A DNA stretch of 51,277 nt, from the sequence record NC_105513.1; one strand, given 5' to 3'. The stretch's first letter is position 1. Every line of letters begins with the position of its first letter. Positions 2,964 through 50,677 of this stretch are shown one piece after another. The DNA is from a phage. The notes under the pieces were generated by a model. That model was not told the origin of the DNA. It saw nothing but the letters and a program-made list of their open reading frames with translations, and made no database searches. The translations under genes were made by a program, and so were the position numbers.

Positions 2964-3232
2964 TTCTTGATCTCCTCAGCAATAAACTTCAGGACTTTGC
3001 GCAAAAACACTTCATTATTGATGGTCGCTGGCAATTCTTCTTTTACTTCTTGCGGCAGGTAAACGTTGCCATGCCAGGTTAAGCAATCGTAGTTGATACG
3101 ATAAGAGCAAAGCCACTCGCAATCGTTATCCGCTTCCCAAATGCAGAGTTGCAGAACATCACCGAAATCCTCAACAGTCAGATCCAGACCGTGACGCTTT
3201 GCAAAGTTGAAAGTGGTTTTGCTGATGTTCAT
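2960..3232 (-). CDS. hypothetical protein
   Basis: 90 aa ORF, RBS AGGAG; first gene after promoter box 3296..3315. Confidence 0.55.
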   Translation of the reverse strand: MNISKTTFNFAKRHGLDLTVEDFGDVLQLCIWEADNDCEWLCSYRINYDCLTWHGNVYLPQEVKEELPATINNEVFLRKVLKFIAEEIKK

Positions 3233-3270
3233 TTGCTTTCTCCTGATGGGTATCTCGTTTCGATGTGTGC

Positions 3271-3315
3271 ATTATGCCGAATCCAGTCAGGCACGTTTTA
3301 ACAAAAAGTGCTATT
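3271..3315 (-). promoter_or_regulatory. box-type promoter (box 3296..3315, -10 CATAAT)
   Basis: box, 22-bp spacer, CATAAT, leader CACATCGAAACGAGA; first promoter of leftward early block. Confidence 0.6.
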
Positions 3316-3539
3316 TGCTTACTGGTCATTATTCCATCTATTCCATTAATCAGGAATAACAGGAATAACTCATTCGCGATCACCTGGATTGGGAGACTTT
3401 GAGTTTGGTCAATTTTAATCAAGTGATTAACTTTTTGTGTGGAGGGGATAGAGAAACGCTGCCCTCTTGCATCCTTTCCGACAATCCTGGCGCGCGCATC
3501 TGTTATTTCTGTTCCCCATGTTATCTCAAATAAGCCTCC

Positions 3540-3868
3540 GCACTTTTAGATAACAGAATCGGCGTTCATCAACAAAAAGAACAAAATAAAATTTATATAT
3601 ATACCCATAAAATCAATAAGTTAGTTATATATGTATTTATATTTGTTATTTACTGTTGAGCTTGTTCTATGGGTATATGGTGGAGTGGTATTGTTTGTGG
3701 TGATATGTATGTGTGATTGTATATTTTTTAATCAATGGTGATATGTGGTGATTTTTGTATGTATATATATAGGTATGGAGCAATCCTCCGTCAACCAAGT
3801 CAACAAGGTCATTTTTAAAAGAAAAACCAATGACTTAACTGAAGCATTTTGTTATCTTTAAACGCGCC
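3540..3868. repeat. AT/GT-rich non-coding region A, homologous to region B
   Basis: ORF-free; shares exact 16-mer AAATCAATAAGTTAGT (3610..3625) and about 55 bp of flanking similarity with 32755..32812; GGTGAT iteron-like repeats. Confidence 0.6.
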
Positions 3869-3904
3869 ACATGCCAAAAATTGTTATTAAAACACAAAAA
3901 TACA

Positions 3905-3933
3905 TTGACACGTATGAAAGGCAAGGCAATAAT
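3905..3933 (+). promoter_or_regulatory. sigma70-like promoter TTGACA-17-AATAAT
   Basis: canonical spacing, about 35 nt upstream of ATG 3970. Confidence 0.5.
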
Positions 3934-3969
3934 GCATCCAGTTTAAACGCAACAAAAGGAGTAGACGCC

Positions 3970-4455
3970 ATGAGCGAAGAAAATATTAGCACCATGTCGC
4001 GTAGTGAGTTCTGCGATATGCTTCGCAGCCTGGGCGCGGCAATTGGTAGCGGTGAGCGTAATGATGTATTCATGCCAGCACTTTTTTTGTGCGCTAACGT
4101 GGAGAACGGCGAAGCAATTACGGCATCGTACATGCGCCAAGTGGTCAACCGTGTGCCAGAAGTAAAGCAAAAAGGCGTGATCAGCATTAAGCGAAAGGTG
4201 ACTGATGAGGGTGATGGCTTTGTGTTTACGCTCACTGAAGCCAAAAGCAAGCCTCGCGTTCTGACTGGTGAAGAAATCGACGAGATCGCAGAAAAGCGCG
4301 CAGAGAAGGCGGTAAGCAAAATTCTTAATCACCTGGTAAACGTAATGCCAAATATCACAGACCTGGAAGGCGACAAACTTGCTGGGGCGTGTGAGGCTAT
4401 CGGGCGCTACCAGGATATGATTCGTAAACTCGCTGGAGGAAAAGAGGATGAATAA
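3970..4455 (+). CDS. hypothetical protein
   Basis: 161 aa from MSEENIST; RBS AAGGAG; downstream of TTGACA-17-AATAAT promoter. Confidence 0.6.
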   Translation: MSEENISTMSRSEFCDMLRSLGAAIGSGERNDVFMPALFLCANVENGEAITASYMRQVVNRVPEVKQKGVISIKRKVTDEGDGFVFTLTEAKSKPRVLTGEEIDEIAEKRAEKAVSKILNHLVNVMPNITDLEGDKLAGACEAIGRYQDMIRKLAGGKEDE

Positions 4456-18054: not shown

Positions 18055-18072
18055 TTTAACAAAAAATGCTAT
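18055..18072 (-). promoter_or_regulatory. orphan box copy, inverted relative to flanking genes
   Basis: TTTAACAAAAAATGCTAT about 50 bp upstream of major capsid ATG; no -10 at 21-22 bp on the minus strand. Confidence 0.4.
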
Positions 18073-21813: not shown

Positions 21814-21832
21814 TTTTAACAAAAAGTGCTAT
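21814..21832 (-). promoter_or_regulatory. orphan box copy, inverted, abutting RBS of chaperone gene
   Basis: TTTTAACAAAAAGTGCTAT directly before CAAGGAGAAAGAAATG. Confidence 0.4.
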
Positions 21833-32349: not shown

Positions 32350-32577
32350 TCACAGACTGCAATCAGCGTTTTTAAAGTTATCAATACTTACCCACTGAAA
32401 ATTAAACGGATAGCCAGCCTTAACAAGAGTGCGGTCGCCAACTCGTTTCACTCCGAAAATAGCAACTGAATACTGCATTCCGCTATTTTCATAAATAGCC
32501 GTGCATTCACGTTTAGGCATATTTGCACATCCAGTCAGTGCAACGGCTGCAATCAAAACGGCGATTAACTTTTTCAT
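32350..32577 (-). CDS. lipoprotein, possible Cor-like superinfection exclusion protein
   Basis: 75 aa; signal peptide with lipobox LTGC; RBS AAGGAG; own promoter box 32634..32651; convergent with tail fibre genes. Confidence 0.55.
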   Translation of the reverse strand: MKKLIAVLIAAVALTGCANMPKRECTAIYENSGMQYSVAIFGVKRVGDRTLVKAGYPFNFQWVSIDNFKNADCSL

Positions 32578-32607
32578 TTTGTGTCTCCTTAGTTGTTATT
32601 GGTTGCA

Positions 32608-32651
32608 ACTATACACGATCTTGCGGTGGGCGTTTAGCAAAAAGTGCTATT
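32608..32651 (-). promoter_or_regulatory. box-type promoter (box 32634..32651, -10 TATAGT)
   Basis: rc AATAGCACTTTTTGCTAAA-N22-TATAGT upstream of lipoprotein gene. Confidence 0.55.
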
Positions 32652-32699
32652 CTTGTTCTTTTTGTTATCCGGTGTTCTCAAATCTGCGGAGTCTTAAAT

Positions 32700-33076
32700 T
32701 TAGCTCAAAAAGTGAACAACAATAGAGCGCAATACATACAGATAAATATATACATACATATAAATCAATAAGTTAGTAGTATATATATTCATGTTTGTTC
32801 TTTATTGTTATCTATGTTTTGTGTGATTTTGTGCGTCTGGTGATTTTTCTGTGATTATGCATGTGTCAGTGGTTATGTGTGTCTATATATCTATATCCGG
32901 CGCAAATGAGGGAACAAGAGAACAAAAAGACAACAAAGGTATTTATCAATCACTTACATGTGAATTTTGTTATCCAATTCTCCTAGAACGTTGTTAGAAC
33001 AGAAAAAACAAAATAACTGTTGACTAAACGCATTAAATAGCTAAAATGCAGGCATACCAACCAACGAGGGCAAATC
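32700..33076. repeat. AT/GT-rich non-coding region B, homologous to region A
   Basis: ORF-free; 16-mer AAATCAATAAGTTAGT at 32762..32777; GTGTGATT and GGTGATTTTT segments shared with region A. Confidence 0.6.
33020..33047 (+). promoter_or_regulatory. sigma70-like promoter TTGACT-16-TAAAAT
   Basis: about 30 nt upstream of exonuclease ATG 33077. Confidence 0.5.
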
Positions 33077-34138
33077 ATGAATAAGTTTATGGCGTACACC
33101 AGCGAAGAAATGAGTAACGAGCTTTATCACGATCCAGAAGCGTGGACGGCTGATTATGTTAGCGGTTCAAGCCTGGCAGAGATTTACAGCACATGCCCGG
33201 CAGCGTGGAAGTTCAAGCCGCGTGATGACAAGAGCAAGGCGCTAGTTTTCGGTACGCAGTCGCATACCAACTTTGAAAGCAAGGAGCTTTTCGAAAAAAC
33301 CTATCGCCGTGCGCCAGCACCAGAAGAATTTAAGGATCTGATAACCAGCCAAACGGCGCTTGCTGCAAAGCTGAAATCATTTGGACTGAAAGGTACAACC
33401 GGAAAGACTTATCCCGAACTTATAAAAATGATGGTTGACTGCGGAGAAGACCTTAACGTCATGTGGTTAATCGACATGATCGCAGAAAGTCAGGCCAGGG
33501 CCGATGGGGTTCAGTTAATCGAGGCTAAAGATTACGATTCTTGCGTGGCAATGCGCCAGGTTCTGGAATCAATACCGGAACATAACGCATGTATGAATAG
33601 CAAGACGGCACAACGTGAATTATCGTTGTTCGGTGAAATTAACGGCGTAAAAGTCAAAGTGCGATGCGATCACGTTGACGTAACAAAGAACGTCACCGCA
33701 ACGCTTATTGATGGTTACGATGAAAAAGGTCAGCCAATTTGCCGCGATATTATTTATCCAGAGGCCATTGTGATCACAGACTACAAAACCACAATGAGCG
33801 CGAATCCGGCTGAGTTTATGCGCCTGGCTTACAATCACGGCTATTATTTGAAAATGGCGTTGCAATGTGATTTATTCAGAAAAGCGTATCCAGAAGAAAA
33901 GCGACCTATAGTTGTTCGACTGTTAGCGCAAGAGAAGAAAGAGCCTTATTTGCCGTTGGCTTTCCGCATGAACAGCGAGCAATTGAAGATCGGGCGCATT
34001 CAGTACATGAGCGTAATTAACCAGTTTGCCATGTGCCAGCAACATGACGTTTGGCCTTCGTATTCAAACGGCGAGCCGGAGGTTTGCCTTGATACTCCTG
34101 ATTGGGTGCGACGCCAGTTTAAGCAATATCTTATTTAA
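33077..34138 (+). CDS. putative recombination exonuclease (PD-(D/E)XK family)
   Basis: 353 aa; RCDHVD ... ITDYKTT nuclease-like motifs; precedes annealase-like and SSB genes. Confidence 0.55.
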   Translation: MNKFMAYTSEEMSNELYHDPEAWTADYVSGSSLAEIYSTCPAAWKFKPRDDKSKALVFGTQSHTNFESKELFEKTYRRAPAPEEFKDLITSQTALAAKLKSFGLKGTTGKTYPELIKMMVDCGEDLNVMWLIDMIAESQARADGVQLIEAKDYDSCVAMRQVLESIPEHNACMNSKTAQRELSLFGEINGVKVKVRCDHVDVTKNVTATLIDGYDEKGQPICRDIIYPEAIVITDYKTTMSANPAEFMRLAYNHGYYLKMALQCDLFRKAYPEEKRPIVVRLLAQEKKEPYLPLAFRMNSEQLKIGRIQYMSVINQFAMCQQHDVWPSYSNGEPEVCLDTPDWVRRQFKQYLI

Positions 34139-40209: not shown

Positions 40210-41142
40210 TTAGAGAATTGATTCAGGTTTGAAAACCTTCCTCTCTATCCCTTGCCTGTAATTATCATTAATCGGCATCATAATTTCAAGACCTCTTTCC
40301 TCTGCGGCAATGATAGCGTCACGATCTGTGCTCTTACAGACAACTCGCATTCTTCTGTTGCCTTTATACCTGTAAGCAACAATCTCAATGTTAGTCGCAT
40401 CAAAGCAGGCCCAAACCTCTTGACCAGTTGCAAGGTGAATATGTTGCGCATCAATCCAGTCAACGCAAAGATAGATAGTCTTATCTGTGCTTCCTGTTCT
40501 CACAACCGACCCGCGCGTGTAATCCTTAGCGAGAAAAGATTTATTTCCTTCTTCATCAATGAAAAGCACATTGCACATTTCATCATCAATCTCATCTGAG
40601 TGTACCAGGTGACACGGTAGCGCGTGAATGTATCGACCATCTTTAACGCCGCATTCATAATAACCATCTTCAGGCGGATATATCCCTTCATATGTACTTA
40701 ACGGCGTGCGATCAAATTTTAGTGTTTTTGACATAACGCGCTCGCAGCATTCATGGCTTGCCTGCTTCCCAAACGAATAACCAGAATCACGAGATACTCG
40801 CTTATTTGCCTTGATCCTATAGTCCTGCGGAACTTTTCCAAGAAAGCGGCCCAAAATATTGATCACTTCGCTGTAAGGTTCTCCGGTTAGCTTCATGATC
40901 CAACCAATTCCAGTATCGTTTCCGCACACATTGCAGATAGCGCCGCCGTCGCCTTTTTTATCTCCAAGTTTATCAGTCCATCTAAAGCGATCCTTTCCGC
41001 CGCAGTGTGGGCAAGATTGATGCTTGCCGTTAAAAACTTCATTTGGAAGACCGCAAATACTTTGTAGCGCCTCACGCCATAATCCCTGCATATATGGGAG
41101 AACATCTTCCTTTTGATAAACCATAAAGTTTTCGTTATTCAT
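40210..41142 (-). CDS. putative DNA primase (zinc-ribbon, Toprim-like)
   Basis: 310 aa from [10 protein letters not shown] (RBS GAGGTG); CPHCGG...CNVCG zinc ribbon; acidic C-terminal domain. Confidence 0.5.
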
Positions 41143-41198
41143 ATGCACCTCAAACAAAAAAGCCTGACAGATGATAACATCATGCCAGGCATTGGTTT

Positions 41199-41672
41199 TT
41201 AGCAATTAGTGCTTTCAGGTTTATACAGGAATCCTCCAGGCTCATAATCTGACATTCTTACCACTCGCAACATTTCGCGCTTATCACATCTCTTTGTGAG
41301 CGGTTTGCCATTGGAATCAAATCGCAGATCTGGACGACAGAATGATGCGCGATAGCCTTGACATCCATATTTTTTGTAATCGTTATGCACCTTTTGAGCG
41401 CCAGCGGCTGAAATCATACCGCGAACGCGCCACTGATTTACAGTTTGCTGGCTAACGTTAAGACGCTTTGCCATTGCTGACACGCTGCCGTAATACTCAA
41501 TAAGAATGTCAAGCCGTGCTTTTAGTCCGGCGCGCACTTCATCTTTTAAAACATAGTATCCTGTAGGGCGCTTGCGCTTTTTCTTATCTTTACCCCGTCG
41601 AGTTCCGTTATTGCCATTGATTGTGCGTTTGTCAATCTTACCAGTTGATACTGCGATTCGCTGTTCTTTCAT
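41199..41672 (-). CDS. putative DNA-binding protein
   Basis: 157 aa; basic N-terminus (KDKKKRKRP) and helix-turn-helix-like LNVSQQTVNQWRVRG. Confidence 0.45.
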   Translation of the reverse strand: MKEQRIAVSTGKIDKRTINGNNGTRRGKDKKKRKRPTGYYVLKDEVRAGLKARLDILIEYYGSVSAMAKRLNVSQQTVNQWRVRGMISAAGAQKVHNDYKKYGCQGYRASFCRPDLRFDSNGKPLTKRCDKREMLRVVRMSDYEPGGFLYKPESTNC

Positions 41673-41684
41673 TATTCATTCTCC

Positions 41685-41728
41685 AATAGCATTTTTTGTT
41701 AAACGATGATTTAATGATTGTGTATTAT
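41685..41728 (+). promoter_or_regulatory. box-type promoter (-10 TATTAT 41723..41728)
   Basis: AATAGCATTTTTTGTTAAAC; 21-bp spacer; upstream of helicase gene. Confidence 0.55.
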
Positions 41729-41761
41729 ACACGCCAAATGGCATTACTCAAAGGTTTTAGA

Positions 41762-43801
41762 ATGATTCCAAACATTGAAAAGCAAATATCAGCACTTGGT
41801 GAGGCGGTAATTAAATCCATTCAGGAGCGATTCACTGTTGGCGATATTGTGCCTTACCCTTACCAGTGCGTTGCATACGCTGAGATCGCAAAGCGTATGA
41901 AAAATTATGAGCATCCATTCTTTGTTAAAGCGTCCGTATCGGCTGGCAAAACATTGATGTTTGCAATGGTTGCTCACCAGTGCCGGAAAATGGGCTTGAA
42001 AATGATGGTACTTGCTCGCCAGGCTGAGATTGTGGATCAGGATTCTGAAGAGATAACAAATCTTGGTGTGCCGAACTCCATCTATTGTGCAGGACTGAAG
42101 ACAAAAAGCGCATACTTTCCGATCGTTGTTGGCTCTGAGGGAACTGTAGTTAATGGACTGTTTAAAGCGCTTGGCGACTATGTTCCGCACGTTATCGGGA
42201 TTGACGAGTGTCACCAGGTGGATTGGGAAGACCTTGCCGACGCAATAGAGAAAGACGAATCATTTTTACAAATGACGACGAAGAAAGGCGAAAAAGTACC
42301 AAATCCAGATTATGACATAACTAGCGATAACGAATGCGAAGAGTTTCTGATTGGTGAGGATGGATTGCCAATGGAGGGAACAGGCCGCACACAATACACT
42401 GTCATTATCATGGAAATGATGCGCCGCTGCCGGAAAACATATGGTCATGAACTGCGCATCTTTGGTATGACTGGATCAGAGTTTCGCGGCGTGGTTCCGA
42501 TCCTTGTCGAAGATAAAAAGCAGAAAGGATTCTGGCGCGAACAGGTTACTAATATTGACACCAACTACCTGATCAAATTCGGTTCTGTTGTGCCAACAAA
42601 TTTTGGCGACGTTGGCGATCTAGGGTATGACCTTTCAGAGTTTGAGGCATCCAGTGAGGATGGCGTTGCAGACTTTGACGCTAAAACGCTTCGCAGGATG
42701 GAACAAAAAATTCATGAAGAAGCGACCATGACAAAGCGCATCATGGCGAAAGTTCACGAGATCTGTAAAAACCGTAACGGCGTACTTGTTACATGTGCAG
42801 GAGAAAGGCATTGCAAAGAGGCAGCGGCAGCTTTGCCACCTGGAACGACTTACAGGATCATTACTGGTAAGACTGGCGACAACCAGCGCAAGGAGTGGTT
42901 GAAGGAAGCATACGAGGGGAAGGTAAAATACATCTTCCAGGTTCAGGCGCTAACAACTGGCGTTAACGTGCCGTTTTGGGATACGTCGGTTATATTGCGT
43001 AAGATTGGATCTCTTACGTTGCTGATTCAGCTTTTAGGGCGCGGAATGCGACTACTTAAGAAGTGGCATAAGGAGCAAGGATTCCAGAAAGATGATCATC
43101 TCGTCATGGATTTTTCAGGAACGATGGACGAGCTAGGGGAGCTTTATTTTGATCCGATACTGGAACAGGCGCAGCACCAGAAGCGATTCAGAAATGGTAA
43201 AGATCCGAAGCCTTGTCCTATTTGCGGAACTCTTAACAGCTATTATGCTCGTCGCTGTATGCACGTAGACGAAGACGGCAACAGATGCGAGTGGTTCTTT
43301 AAATTCAGGACATGTGACGATCAGGTTGACCCACGCACTAAAAAGATTATTCAGCGCGGTTGTGGAACGAAAAATGATATTGCGGCCAGGGTATGCAGAC
43401 ATTGCGACATGTCATTGATTGACCCTAACGAGAAGTTAAGCGGAAAGCACTACACAAAAAACGACTGGTTCCAGGTGCAATCTTTCTCGGTTGACATGAC
43501 GAAAAACCAGAAAGGGATAATATTTAATTATGAGCTTTCCGATGGCATAGACACTTTCAGGGCGAGAGAGATATTTTTCCCTGAATCTGAGAGCCAAATT
43601 TGCCGCGCAAAATGGCGAAGCGTTGCTCTTAAGCACATACCAGATCGCCGCGTTGCTGGCATGGTGGCGAGCTATCGTAATGCACGAAAAATAATGCAAT
43701 ATGTTAATCACATTATGCCGCCATCGCGTGTGACTCACCGCAAGACTAGCAAGGGCGAAGATAATTTGTACAAGAAGGAATTTAATTATGGCAATGACTG
43801 A
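41762..43801 (+). CDS. ATP-dependent helicase (superfamily 2) with C-terminal zinc fingers
   Basis: 679 aa from MIPNIEKQ; Walker A SAGKTLMF, DECH box IGIDECHQV; C-terminal CPICG...C...C clusters. Confidence 0.8.
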   Translation: MIPNIEKQISALGEAVIKSIQERFTVGDIVPYPYQCVAYAEIAKRMKNYEHPFFVKASVSAGKTLMFAMVAHQCRKMGLKMMVLARQAEIVDQDSEEITNLGVPNSIYCAGLKTKSAYFPIVVGSEGTVVNGLFKALGDYVPHVIGIDECHQVDWEDLADAIEKDESFLQMTTKKGEKVPNPDYDITSDNECEEFLIGEDGLPMEGTGRTQYTVIIMEMMRRCRKTYGHELRIFGMTGSEFRGVVPILVEDKKQKGFWREQVTNIDTNYLIKFGSVVPTNFGDVGDLGYDLSEFEASSEDGVADFDAKTLRRMEQKIHEEATMTKRIMAKVHEICKNRNGVLVTCAGERHCKEAAAALPPGTTYRIITGKTGDNQRKEWLKEAYEGKVKYIFQVQALTTGVNVPFWDTSVILRKIGSLTLLIQLLGRGMRLLKKWHKEQGFQKDDHLVMDFSGTMDELGELYFDPILEQAQHQKRFRNGKDPKPCPICGTLNSYYARRCMHVDEDGNRCEWFFKFRTCDDQVDPRTKKIIQRGCGTKNDIAARVCRHCDMSLIDPNEKLSGKHYTKNDWFQVQSFSVDMTKNQKGIIFNYELSDGIDTFRAREIFFPESESQICRAKWRSVALKHIPDRRVAGMVASYRNARKIMQYVNHIMPPSRVTHRKTSKGEDNLYKKEFNYGND

Positions 43802-46946: not shown

Positions 46947-46989
46947 ACTTTTAATCATTAAAATATAAATATAAATCATCAATTTAATT

Positions 46990-47020
46990 GGGCGTGGCAT
47001 TTTGCTTCGCCCTTTTTTTA
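46990..47020 (+). terminator. possible terminator before lysis cassette
   Basis: GGGCG...CGCCC with 13-nt loop then TTTTTTT. Confidence 0.45.
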
Positions 47021-47092
47021 TTCCTTTTTGTGCGTTCAATGGTTAGGATACAATCAATTAATTGTTGACTTTTATATACAGGAGATCTAATC

Positions 47093-47308
47093 ATGAAAGA
47101 TTTTTTAAACGCTGCAACTTCCGGCACTGGCGGCGCGTCAATCACTGGCGCGGTAACTGGTCAAACAACTATTGCAATAGCCAGCTTCGTTTTGATGGCT
47201 GCATTTGGTATGTGGGGCGCTTATCTTCGCTGGCGTGATAGTAAGGCGCTACGTAACGCGCTTGAATGCGGTGATATTAAGAAAGCTATTGAGATCAGAG
47301 GTAAATAA
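47093..47308 (+). CDS. holin
   Basis: 71 aa, hydrophobic core [29 protein letters not shown] and charged C-terminus; first gene of lysis cassette. Confidence 0.6.
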
Positions 47309-48700: not shown

Positions 48701-49019
48701 CGCTCATTTCTCCGATCCGTAAAGCATCTCTTACCCATTCGTTTTGCATACCTTCCAGGCTGTAAAGTTCAAACGAGAAAGGGCGATTTGCTGATCCTTT
48801 CTTACACCAGAACTTTCCACCAACTCCATCAAGATAACCAGCGGTCATCATTCTTGCGCAAAATTCTTTTGAAACGGCACTTGCAAACATCCTCGGAGTA
48901 AATCCTGCGGCCCTTGCGAGCCGCTCACATTCTCTGTGCTGAAAGATAAATTTTGCTATATGTTGACGTGTAAACCATTCGAATGACTCACACCATCGAT
49001 ACAGATCCAGAAGAAACAT
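48627..49019 (-). CDS. hypothetical protein
   Basis: 130 aa ORF downstream of the large ATPase gene. Confidence 0.45.
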   Translation of the reverse strand: MFLLDLYRWCESFEWFTRQHIAKFIFQHRECERLARAAGFTPRMFASAVSKEFCARMMTAGYLDGVGGKFWCKKGSANRPFSFELYSLEGMQNEWVRDALRIGEMSDEELFTSNANRQNIEVLRRKFNLT

Positions 49020-49021
49020 AA

Positions 49022-50605
49022 TTACCCCAGCAATGTTGGATTTACAAAAACAACGCCATTAATCACACAAATATAATTTCTTTCTTCAAGCATCGGCAGC
49101 AGTTGCGTTTCCATACGCTTCATTACGCCAGCCTGGCCAACAAACGGCTTAACTTTTCGTGCAGCCTCATATATGGCGCGCACATTCAAGATCCCCTTGT
49201 TAGCCTTACCGTGTCGAGTGATGATCTCGATTAGTTTACCCATTTCAGCATCATCACCAGCATAGCCAGAAGCGTTGGCGGCGCTAATGTATGTTTTGCT
49301 CAACTCGCTAAACATCAGCAGTGCTTCCTGAACGGTTTCAACCTCAATCTCTTTCGACTTTTGAGGGTATCCGCCAGGATTAAACCAATTGCGGATAGTG
49401 TGCAAAACCGAAGCAATCCTGATCACCTGCTTATCCATTTTGCCAAGCGCACCGCGCAGCATTGTATGCGAATACTTTCCGCCATCGGCAAGGTGCGGTT
49501 CCATCTCCTGACGAGCCATGTTAAGAACTCGCATTGCGGATTTGCTGATCTTAAGCTGGATGTTCGATTCACTCATGATGTTATGGATCAGCTTGAAATA
49601 TTGGCTTTTCAGTTCTCCATCAACAGGTTCATAAGTAGAATCACCGTTATCATCAACAAACTTTCTACGGCCTAAAAATGATTCCTCACGCACAAGCAAA
49701 TAACGCTCACTTACACCGATACCGCGCGATCCTGCATCCATGATGGCATTGATTGTTTCATCCTGGGCAATTACCGCCATACAGCCAAGAGCTTTAAAAC
49801 TCATATTGTTGTCAGCGTTTGCGCGAGCTATAGAAACATGACCGTGATCCCATGCTTTTAATACAAGTTCGCTGTTGGTTTTACGTTCGCTATTGGCATA
49901 TGTCAGACCTAAAAGGCTGTTAATACTTGTTGCCTCGTCTGAAATCACAGCAAAGTTACCCTGGCGATTGTTGATTCTTGCAAGTCCTTCCGGCGTTGTG
50001 TCGGACACAGGGAAAACGATGTCACACATCTTTTCCAGTTTTTCTTCCAGATCTTCTTTCTCCTGGTACAGAGATTCCATATCAGCGCCGGAGCGCTCGC
50101 TTTTCATCTCTTTTGCAAGACCTGCCAACTTTGCCTGAATCTTTTTTCTTTCCTTCTTTCGCTGTTCATTAATTCTTTCCACTTCAGCAACCATAGGAGC
50201 AAGTGCCAGGCTGTTAACGGCAGATTTACCAGTTGATGGAGGCTGGCTTGTGACAACGTAAAGAGCGGTTGGTTGATCCGTTCCGTGATACTCAACCGTG
50301 AAGCGTCCAAGCATTGCAGCAGACACGCAGCCGATAAAATGCATATATGCCGATGATTCAGGGAACTGAACTGATCGAGCAATGTTGCGCGCCAACTTAC
50401 CAACAACATCAATATCATTGCCAAGAGAAATTACAGGGTAGCGATCGTTTCCGTTATTAACATCATTAACCTCACCCCAAAAGCTGGACGATTGACGGTA
50501 TCCGTTTGCCTGAATGGACACGCGCACAGGAGACAATCCTTGTGCATCAGCTAATTCGATAATTTGTTTTGGTGTTAGTTTATTGGTTTCAAACGAAAAA
50601 TTCAT
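49022..50605 (-). CDS. putative P-loop ATPase (replication-associated?)
   Basis: 527 aa from MNFSFETNK (RBS AAGGAG); deviant Walker A SQPPSTGKS and Walker B-like FAVISDEA. Confidence 0.55.
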   Translation of the reverse strand: MNFSFETNKLTPKQIIELADAQGLSPVRVSIQANGYRQSSSFWGEVNDVNNGNDRYPVISLGNDIDVVGKLARNIARSVQFPESSAYMHFIGCVSAAMLGRFTVEYHGTDQPTALYVVTSQPPSTGKSAVNSLALAPMVAEVERINEQRKKERKKIQAKLAGLAKEMKSERSGADMESLYQEKEDLEEKLEKMCDIVFPVSDTTPEGLARINNRQGNFAVISDEATSINSLLGLTYANSERKTNSELVLKAWDHGHVSIARANADNNMSFKALGCMAVIAQDETINAIMDAGSRGIGVSERYLLVREESFLGRRKFVDDNGDSTYEPVDGELKSQYFKLIHNIMSESNIQLKISKSAMRVLNMARQEMEPHLADGGKYSHTMLRGALGKMDKQVIRIASVLHTIRNWFNPGGYPQKSKEIEVETVQEALLMFSELSKTYISAANASGYAGDDAEMGKLIEIITRHGKANKGILNVRAIYEAARKVKPFVGQAGVMKRMETQLLPMLEERNYICVINGVVFVNPTLLG

Positions 50606-50632
50606 TGGTGATAACTCCTTTTTGATGCGGCA

Positions 50633-50677
50633 ATAATACCGCACCAATGCTACCCGCATTTAACAAAAAATGCTATT
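50633..50677 (-). promoter_or_regulatory. box-type promoter (box 50659..50677, -10 TATTAT)
   Basis: 22-bp spacer; leader CATCAAAAAGGAG; upstream of ATPase gene. Confidence 0.6.

Follow-up and report, generated by a model that had tools for sequence, protein, structure and literature searches.

Two intergenic spacers, A and B, situated 29 kb apart in the genome of a T1-like coliphage, carry the only two copies of a conserved sequence module, and our analysis points, tentatively and with a likelihood somewhat below even, to a model in which a single kind of cis-acting nucleoprotein assembly module, an origin-type element placed between divergent early promoters, is present twice. The window analyzed (NC_105513.1) is the whole stretch of 51,277 nucleotides, a roughly complete genome of the genus Hanrivervirus (Drexlerviridae, Tempevirinae), and its spacers A and B are 98.8–100% identical to those of Escherichia phage JLBYU09 (Hanrivervirus) and 85–97% identical to those of dozens of further relatives. 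T1 ranks among the founding model phages, T1-like phages are common therapy candidates and laboratory contaminants, and to our knowledge the replication origin of T1 has never been located. The present analysis gives coordinates and anatomy for a conserved, co-evolving cis pair across Drexlerviridae, which we consider the best candidate yet for the origin of the family, and allows this pair to be distinguished from the 21-nt promoter boxes as well as from the probable pac region. In the 2024 reannotation of Tls, neither an origin nor other iterons or origin-like repeats were found, and unexplained intergenic repeats were listed among the open questions (PMC11447400).

Spacer A separates a leftward block of small early genes from a long, divergently oriented rightward block, and spacer B is bordered by the leftward cor gene (minus strand) on one side and by the rightward exoVIII(recE)-erf-ssb genes on the other. 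The original prediction had described a region of about 330 bp devoid of open reading frames at positions 3540–3868. The absence of coding potential holds, as no credible ORF was found in the six frames of spacer A (longest open run of 55 codons, 4–11 stops per frame), but the region is larger than had been proposed: the non-coding spacer covers at least 3522–3969 and probably 3233–3969, from the ATG of the leftward gene at 3232 to the ATG of the rightward gene at 3970. The annotated ORF at 3171–3422 is doubtful, since a box-type promoter (3320–3250) lies inside it. T1, Tls and Rtp have A-equivalent spacers of 700, 783 and 1015 bp, respectively. With a GC content of 0.28–0.30, compared to 0.444 overall, A and B are the two lowest spots of the genome.

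A long conserved region without ORFs may conceal a small ORF or a gene for a non-coding RNA, an explanation which we judge very improbable here. Although one folding z-score reached −2.2, the strongest value, on the minus strand of the A core, the RNA folding z-scores of A and B spanned −2.2 to +1.8 and were not common to both copies, an Rfam scan of the whole window returned no match, and no terminator-like site was found in A or B. The density of stop codons and the short open runs reported above likewise argue against this explanation.

The two spacers share far more than base composition. The 16-mer AAATCAATAAGTTAGT, previously noted as common to A and B, is present exactly twice in the genome, at 3610 and 32762. 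Alignment of the two spacers by the Smith-Waterman procedure gave a score of 89, compared to 22.6±2.9 (maximum 38) for 500 dinucleotide shuffles, and since the control sequences were dinucleotide shuffles, AT composition cannot account for the similarity; an explanation by low-complexity AT content, which the original prediction had named as its possible undoing, is thereby discarded. Sensitive blastn revealed a collinear match of 3501–3724 to 32654–32876 with 67.5% identity, so that the flanking similarity, first estimated at about 55 bp, is real but extends further. No third copy of the module was detected by blastn across the genome. A (core 3501–3724) and B (32654–32876, plus strand, between cor (−) and exoVIII/recE (+)) are true paralogs, and only these two copies exist in the genome. 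The GT-rich and repeat strings on which attention had initially been drawn were all recovered at the positions given for them: GGTGATATGT at 3699 and 3737, GGTGATTTTT at 3747 and 32839, and GTGTGATT at 3711 and 32821. Capture involving a satellite or plasmid would be hinted at by copies of the module in E. coli chromosomes or plasmids, but none were found there. Scanning IMG/VR for the exact 16-mer returned mostly unrelated AT-rich contigs.

The relatives were therefore compared by gene context, a locus being anchored in IMG/VR genomes on the polynucleotide kinase gene (pnk) for A and on exoVIII for B; the 161-aa gene that adjoins spacer A matched only 2 loci, and pnk was chosen as the A anchor. 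For each genome, the 7 kb preceding pnk was scanned for the best alignment of its own B spacer. The A- and B-equivalent spacers proved alike in 35 of the 38 relatives (z 8–40, with a GC content of 0.27–0.39 for the A-side match), and the part of the B spacer that aligned was always the same among these genomes. The three failures comprise loci with only 542 bp (L184) and 2,472 bp (L227) upstream of pnk, and one locus with 6,011 bp (L224). Comparable analyses of T1 and Tls yielded A versus B similarities of z ∼16 each. In a blind test on Rtp, a member of the other main branch of Drexlerviridae, the two least stable 100-bp segments of the genome proved to be the B-like and A-like spacers, which align with each other over 124 nt at ∼84% identity (score 141, z ∼40). 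The region is thus far from absent or unconserved in close relatives, the second outcome that would have spoken against the original prediction, and is found family-wide.

The mean similarity between A and B of the same genome (69) exceeds that of cross-clade A–A (43), B–B (50) and A–B (41) comparisons, which indicates that A and B evolve in concert. In some close relatives, the promoter-side right part has been swapped together with the downstream gene and the core has been kept, the homology stopping at 3687 or at 3856. Elements of this kind are known as such; this particular pair, and the concerted evolution that it shows across the family, seem not to have been described before, and the literature on T1-like phages that we examined contains no mention of the A/B paralogy, of phased words or of an IHF site.

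Concerted evolution, together with the mosaic breakpoints inside A at 3687 and 3856, would also be compatible with the absence of any dedicated function, the spacers then being AT-rich promoter DNA homogenized by the phage RecE/Erf proteins, or recombination hot spots and mosaic joints; G/T-rich DNA, of which spacer A contains a conspicuous tract (see below), is favoured by strand-exchange proteins such as RecA. We regard this explanation as quite unlikely, given that two spacers of 450–1000 bp persist in every genus examined within otherwise densely coding genomes, that spacing and phasing are conserved while the sequence drifts, and that the words described below change coordinately in both copies.

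The anatomy of the module was established from a joint alignment of A and B comprising 22 sequences from 11 genomes, in which the conserved columns correspond to short TGTT-type words and not to the GGTGAT repeats. At the left end of the A core, three words on the plus strand (TGTTA, TGTTC and TGTTA at 3501, 3510 and 3519; 3501–3523) follow each other with a 9-bp spacing, and their columns are conserved in the 22 A/B sequences; the left triplet of B is located at 32654, 32663 and 32673 (32654–32677), at an offset of 29153 from A. A second conserved block of the alignment is formed by the inverted pair CAACAAAAAGAACAAAA (GAACA/CAACA words; 3570–3586, minus strand), formerly regarded as a degenerate box. 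The right triplet (TGTTA, TGTTG and TGTTC at 3644, 3654 and 3663; 3644–3667, plus strand) has 10- and 9-bp spacings and its counterpart in B is found at 32796, 32806 and 32815 (32796–32819), at an offset of 29152. Both A and B thus contain iteron-type arrays of at least three words phased at about one helical turn. Across 10 clades, 31 of 48 same-strand TGTT neighbours are separated by 9–10 bp, as compared to ∼9% in the genomic background, and nowhere in the genome is TGTTC denser than in B (7 per 400 bp versus 0.84 expected).

The words, in direct and inverted sets, flank (TA)n tracts; the TA-rich centre (3571–3670), which includes a (TA)5 run at 3594–3603, represents a candidate DNA-unwinding element. 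According to nearest-neighbour energies, this segment has a ΔG of −105.4 kcal/mol per 100 bp, compared to a genome mean of −136.4±6.7 (z 4.6), and ranks second in the genome, the least stable segment being its B counterpart (32731–32830, z 4.7); whether segments of 100 or of 200 bp are compared, the A and B cores occupy the first two ranks for instability (z 4.1–5.0). TATATA is ∼35-fold enriched and occurs in 19 of 20 spacers when one representative from each of 10 clades is considered. The third least stable spot of the genome (46.9–47.1 kb) was considered as a further module and was discarded, as it consists of an ordinary terminator and a holin leader.

The exact 16-mer common to A and B (3610–3625, plus strand) falls within this centre, and its positions 3611–3623 (AATCAATAAGTTA) fit the IHF consensus WATCAANNNNTTR. 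Hanrivervirus has this consensus site at the centre of the module. Three predicted IHF sites are present in the A and B spacers where 0.147 consensus matches are expected (P ∼0.003); a consensus site at a homologous A and B position is limited to two clades, and the clades of T1, Tls and Rtp lack it or have a degenerate version. The order of the parts is the same in B as in A, with offsets of 29153 for the left triplet, 29152 for the 16-mer and 29152 for the right triplet. As this geometry is kept within 1 bp although A and B are only 20–25% identical between the left triplet and the TA centre, spacing is conserved beyond sequence.

To the right of this core, spacer A continues with a G/T-rich, C-poor tract (3673–3772, plus strand) that contains a single C in 100 nt, a genome extreme, GGTGAT at 3699, 3737 and 3747, and a second (TA)5 run at 3762–3771. 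GGTGAT had been singled out as an iteron-like repeat. It is indeed overrepresented in A (3 versus 0.21 expected), but as a family-wide repeat class GGTGAT or GTGAT[TA] had to be rejected, since it is enriched only in Hanrivervirus, with 0–1 copies in other clades, and the repeats that are conserved are the TGTT words. Further downstream on the plus strand, GTCAAC, GTCAAC and GGTCA (3790–3811) are phased by 9 and 8 bp and would, by analogy, occupy the position of the inverted GAACA arrays found in B (32912–32935) and in the A spacer of Tls. The 11-mer ATTTTGTTATC (3846–3856, plus strand) recurs in B at 32964–32974, and the two copies are placed 59 and 56 bp upstream of the respective −35 hexamers. 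The promoter-side part of B (32912–33047, plus strand) accordingly comprises the inverted GAACA array, a second IHF consensus (32944–32956), this 11-mer and the promoter P_B. No DnaA box (TTWTNCACA) was found in A or B, and the genome contains 4 versus 6.7 expected; such boxes are not obligatory for origins served by phage initiators.

The words differ by lineage, yet within one genome they are common to A and B. TGTTC[TC] and TGTTA are used in NC_105513.1, TGTTCAC/GTGAACA in Tls, and TGTTAC(AC)/GTGTAACA in T1, where ATTACGCC occurs twice adjoining the TA centre; in Rtp the words are GTTACGC, TTTACGC and GTTACA with an 11-bp spacing. As the words are lineage-specific despite E. coli being the common host of all these phages, reading by a host protein is unlikely and a phage-encoded reader is probable. 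Judging from the sequences, such a protein probably recognizes the words and would co-evolve with them.

Two phage proteins can be put forward for this role. The first is a DUF3987 helicase (49022–50659, minus strand), a candidate by inference only, which combines an NTPase with a C-terminal winged-helix domain; this domain matches generic winged-helix folds, and the origin-binding domain of P4 alpha (1KA8) lies outside its top 50–60 matches. The alternative is a 157-aa Cro-like helix-turn-helix (HTH) protein encoded next to the primase (41199–41672, minus strand), for which Pfam YdaS/P22_Cro hits remain below cut-off and Cro-like PDB matches reach E 2e-5. Its own promoter spacer harbours a face-to-face promoter pair and no phased words, which argues mildly against an autoregulating repressor as the reader. 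The replication genes also include an SF2 helicase and a primase (40210–41205, minus strand) homologous to the N-terminal primase domain of P4 alpha, with a P4-alpha/T7 zinc ribbon (Zn_Ribbon_Prim, PF08273, E 2e-12) and a BLASTP match to P4 alpha residues 26–262 (E 2e-12). The P4 alpha origin-binding domain was itself sought among the proteins of the window and rejected, as no sequence match and only a generic fold match was obtained, and no homolog of the P4 alpha SF3 helicase was found among them by sequence.

P4 provides the closest precedent for a two-site arrangement. In the P4 record, type-1 iterons (TGTTCACC) are annotated at two cis sites, ori and crr, with a 9–11 bp spacing and in both orientations. 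As in P4, one short word is shared here by two cis sites, TGTTC opens the P4 word and is contained in the TGTTCAC of the Tls clade, and the phage primase is homologous to the alpha primase domain. In contrast to P4, the exact octamer TGTTCACC is absent from the window (TGTTCA is missing from A and found a single time in B), homologs of the alpha SF3 helicase or of the C-terminal origin-binding domain 1KA8 were not found, the two sites are 29 kb apart instead of 4.5 kb, and the phage is virulent. A literature search for TGTTCACC retrieved primer sequences only. The virulent pac phage SPP1 likewise possesses two distant homologous origins, oriL and oriR, with initiator boxes adjoining an AT-rich segment, although its initiator family (G38P) and boxes are unrelated and one of its origins lies inside a gene. 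At the level of architecture, pSC101 and R6K gamma combine phased direct repeats, an AT-rich unwinding element, an IHF bend and inverted words near a promoter, as is the case for A and B; they differ in that the present modules have no DnaA boxes, no adjacent Rep gene and shorter, more degenerate words, and occur in two copies.

Each spacer also contains a promoter of the host type. P_A (TTGACA-17-AATAAT, 3905–3933, plus strand), which matches 11 of 12 consensus positions and corresponds by position to Tls P01, had been announced as the end of the 330-bp region; the promoter is real but lies outside it, beyond 3868. It is preceded by an A-rich tract and by a TGTT-N5-AACA palindrome (3882–3894) and followed by a ribosome-binding site (RBS; AAAGGAG, 3955–3961) and the ATG at 3970. 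P_B (TTGACT-16-TAAAAT, 33020–33047, plus strand) matches 10 of 12 positions and corresponds by position to Tls P51, and TGTTAGAACA and CTGTTGACT (32992–33025) adjoin or overlap its −35 hexamer. P_A and P_B are the only strong sigma-70 matches of the two spacers, and the lineage word lies over or directly beside the promoters of T1 and Rtp. No more than three sigma-70 promoters were found between genes in Tls, two of which are located in the A- and B-equivalent spacers (PMC11447400). A transcription start map for any T1-like phage was not found in the literature.

These features raise the possibility, which we consider real though clearly less probable than not, that A and B are paired operator or enhancer clusters for the early host-RNA-polymerase promoters P_A and P_B, comparable to lambda OL/OR. 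A regulator such as the Cro-like HTH protein encoded by the phage would occupy both the phased words and the inverted TGTT-N-AACA sequences near the −35 hexamers and thereby activate or shut off transcription, and the AT-rich, IHF-bent DNA would provide looping or an UP-like stimulation. The location of the only strong sigma-70 matches, including two of the three such promoters of Tls, and the presence of inverted words at the −35 hexamers of P_A and P_B and of the lineage word at the promoters of T1 and Rtp all agree with this explanation. Lineage-specific words common to two sites are, moreover, also a signature of lambdoid operators, and lambda OL/OR similarly form two paralogous control regions at early promoters; the lambda operators, however, are 17-bp palindromes overlapping their promoters, whereas the words of A and B are mostly direct, phased, and arranged around an extreme TA tract hundreds of bp upstream. 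Indeed, the conserved core lies 190–400 bp upstream of the promoters, and the distance between module and promoter differs by 34–37 bp between A and B while the internal geometry is held within 1 bp. In addition, the spacer of the third sigma-70 promoter, that of the regulator itself, is devoid of arrays, the core is kept in those close relatives in which the promoter-side part is replaced (homology ending at 3687 or 3856), and operators have no need for extreme duplex instability. The shared regulatory platform suggested at the outset thus survives insofar as A and B carry two of very few consensus sigma-70 promoters, albeit not in the form proposed. The origin and operator readings are not mutually exclusive; if the modules act as early-promoter operators, they would define the early-to-middle switch of the family.

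The promoter-proximal words have to be distinguished from a second repeat class. A 21-nt direct repeat, aaATAGCACnnnTTGnTAAAA, has been described in Tls (PMC11447400). In the present genome, 15 copies of the 21-nt repeat occur versus 0.34 expected, and they are found on all other transcription units; copies in sense orientation are followed by a −10-like hexamer at a fixed distance of 19 nt and then by an RBS and ATG, so that, as far as can be read from the sequence, the repeat serves as the upstream half of a promoter specific to the phage. One intact copy, AATAGCACTTTTTGTTAAAA (3300–3320, minus strand), belongs to the leftward promoter of spacer A and precedes a CATAAT (−10-like) 19 nt downstream, an RBS and the ATG at 3232. 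Intact copies border both spacers (3300–3320 and 32636–32650), a degenerate copy lies inside A (3568–3587), and the CTTTTTGTT core is common to the repeat and to the inverted word pair. The degenerate copy had been noticed before and does exist, on the minus strand, although it retains only the CTTTTTGTT core of the 21-nt repeat, with AAAAGT standing where the −10-like hexamer would be expected. As a dispersed box tied to promoters, the 21-nt repeat is distinct from the A/B module.

Returning to the origin-type reading, the following sequence of events may be envisaged. A phage protein, either the DUF3987 helicase via its winged helix or the Cro-like HTH protein, would read the words and coat one face of the DNA, while IHF, or intrinsic TA flexibility in other clades, would bend the centre of the module. 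Promoters that fire outward generate negative supercoiling between them which favours melting (twin-domain reasoning), and promoters firing away from each spacer could in this way assist the opening of the TA tract. A helicase would then be loaded, and the P4-alpha-type primase would prime synthesis. A and B could serve as two origins, or as an origin and a cis-enhancer as in P4 ori/crr, their likeness being maintained by gene conversion, by co-evolution with the reader, or by both. Early host-type promoters are present in both spacers, and spacer A would also hold the probable start of packaging, leftward of the module.

We rank this reading first because phased iterons, an unwinding element and an IHF site occur together, two-site precedents exist, the promoters point outward and no other origin candidate is available. 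It is supported by the two-copy paralogy, its recurrence in 35 of 38 genomes and in Rtp and the excess of same-genome A–B similarity; by the TGTT phasing, the TATATA enrichment, the top-ranking duplex instability, the geometry kept within 1 bp, the lineage words and the IHF matches (P ∼0.003); and by the two-site iterons of P4, the P4-alpha-like primase and the NTPase plus winged-helix layout of the helicase. Against it stand a conserved word of only 4–5 nt that is degenerate, the lack of a P4 alpha origin-binding homolog by sequence, the generic character of the winged helix and the lack of DnaA boxes; furthermore, two of the rare consensus sigma-70 promoters lie downstream of the modules and have lineage words next to or over them, which fits regulation equally well. 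Classical work on T1 stressed recombination-dependent concatemer formation, a process that might make a strong fixed origin less necessary. The replication origin first proposed is supported by architecture as a candidate, and no longer relies on GGTGAT iterons. GC and AT skew were considered as origin indicators and set aside, as they track gene orientation in every block and are uninformative on replication. If A and B are origins, they would define a minimal replicon and a specificity determinant, useful for engineering or rebooting T1-like phages.

A stricter version, to which we assign a low probability, would make A and B an obligate two-site replication system, in which an initiator synapses the modules across 29 kb by looping, like P4 alpha at ori and crr, both modules being required in cis, their identity kept by gene conversion, and firing at A being coupled to the packaging start and the early promoters.

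The packaging start itself is best placed outside the module. Several lines of evidence locate packaging ends in the A-equivalent spacer: the T1 record starts inside it and carries an annotated 2.8-kb terminal repeat, and in SU57 a PhageTerm/coverage end falls in the equivalent untranslated region. IHF sites flanked by repeats are, in addition, typical of lambda cosB and P1 pac. In Tls, the pac cut has been restriction-mapped to approximately base 1 of the record, within the same spacer, its exact sequence being a guess, and the digests were described with one submolar pac fragment (PMC11447400). The module might on these grounds be a TerS/IHF packaging platform of the cosB, P1-pac or SPP1 pacL/pacR type, with A as the functional pac and B as a secondary or silent pac or an enhancer, an explanation that we hold to be improbable. 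The T1 and Tls ends map ∼110–200 bp to the left of the shared module, in the A-specific part and outside 3540–3868, and an A-specific cluster conserved in T1 is closer to them. B bears the same module, yet has no reported packaging end, and only one submolar pac fragment is seen in Tls; the shared module, being present in two copies, does not offer the unique recognition sequence expected of pac, and it lies 7.6 kb from terS. Deposited record starts (Sazh, BEK1-23, G29-2, U136B) were rejected as terminus evidence, Sazh having been opened by convention to match T1/Tls, and lend this explanation no weight. The original suggestion of a packaging site consequently holds for the spacer, as judged by the T1, Tls and SU57 ends, but not for the module.

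As the T1 and Tls ends lie to the left of the module and the A-specific cluster is found near T1 base 1, the pac region is probably located in spacer A, outside both the shared module and 3540–3868. The cluster consists of inverted repeats (TATTCC twice, GGAATA twice, then CGATCA; 3325–3382), has no counterpart in B, and aligns with T1 48734–48807 (score 42, z 9.1), a stretch that ends ∼30 bp before T1 base 1, where the annotated terminal repeat starts. It is a candidate either for the pac/TerS site or for an upstream site of the leftward promoter.

The 21-nt direct repeat of T1-like phages (the box, described in Tls) occurs in 15 copies in the window against 0.34 expected, namely at positions 61, 1928, 2423, 3300, 4705, 6914, 9561, 18058, 21818, 32636, 41686, 44204, 45245, 48495 and 50662, each of which reads AATAGCACTTTTTGTTAAAA on its sense strand. 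In this orientation, a -10-like hexamer (nATAnT), often with GG before it, stands at a constant 19 nt downstream of every copy. In many copies the hexamer is next followed by CATCGAnAACGAA, and in many an RBS and an ATG are encountered ~30-40 nt beyond the latter. The repeat, whose function is listed among the open questions in PMC11447400, behaves like part of a putative phage-specific promoter, of which it would form the upstream half, from about -51 to -32.

Two of these copies (18058-18072 and 21818-21832) are oriented opposite to the late genes around them, one of them preceding the major capsid gene and the other following the major tail gene; an equivalent copy in antisense, DR7, exists in Tls. 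These copies may act as antisense promoters or roadblocks.

Between the gene of the Cro-like regulator and that of the SF2 helicase, the spacer (41672-41762) is predicted to hold two overlapping promoters, which face each other on the near-palindrome GTGTATTATACAC. The rightward one is of the box type, and the leftward one (TTGAGT-17-TATAAT) is the equivalent of Tls P57.

Around spacer A, the AT-rich non-coding spacer, the annotation of the closest relative, JLBYU09, is likely to be erroneous at 3171-3422 (-) and 3871-3969 (+). A box promoter lies within the former ORF, which also runs into the start of the next gene, and the CDS starting at 3871 reads through P_A, the TTGACA-17-AATAAT promoter at 3905-3933 (+); the ATG at 3970, provided with the RBS AAAGGAG, is a more plausible start.

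Directly upstream of the leftward box promoter, an inverted-repeat cluster (3325-3382) comprises two TATTCC and two GGAATA motifs, then CGATCA. This cluster, conserved with T1 48734-48807, ~30 bp from the annotated T1 physical end, and without counterpart in region B (the paralogous copy of the spacer core at 32654-32876), is a candidate pac/TerS site.

Spacer A also carries two mosaic joints, at 3687 and 3856, where homology to several close relatives ends abruptly, as determined from query coverage (1-388 and 1-557) of window 3300-4100. The first is found at the border of the conserved core, the second just upstream of the promoter.

The short spacer at 46947-47093, which ranks third in the genome for low stability, contains the holin start and an IHF-consensus match (47052) adjoining a weak TTGACT-18-AATCAT promoter-like site. 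A terminator-like stem followed by a T-run (about 46990-47018) was seen by eye and is absent from the list of the consensus scan; no words of the TGTT type phased in regions A and B were found in this spacer.

Finally, about 20 GenBank records under the name 'Campylobacter phage' (MG0656xx), with C. jejuni given as the host, share 90-96% identity with the E. coli T1-like phage studied here, as judged from their matches to window 3300-4100 and 32500-33300. Probably, either their host labels are wrong or the records represent contaminants.
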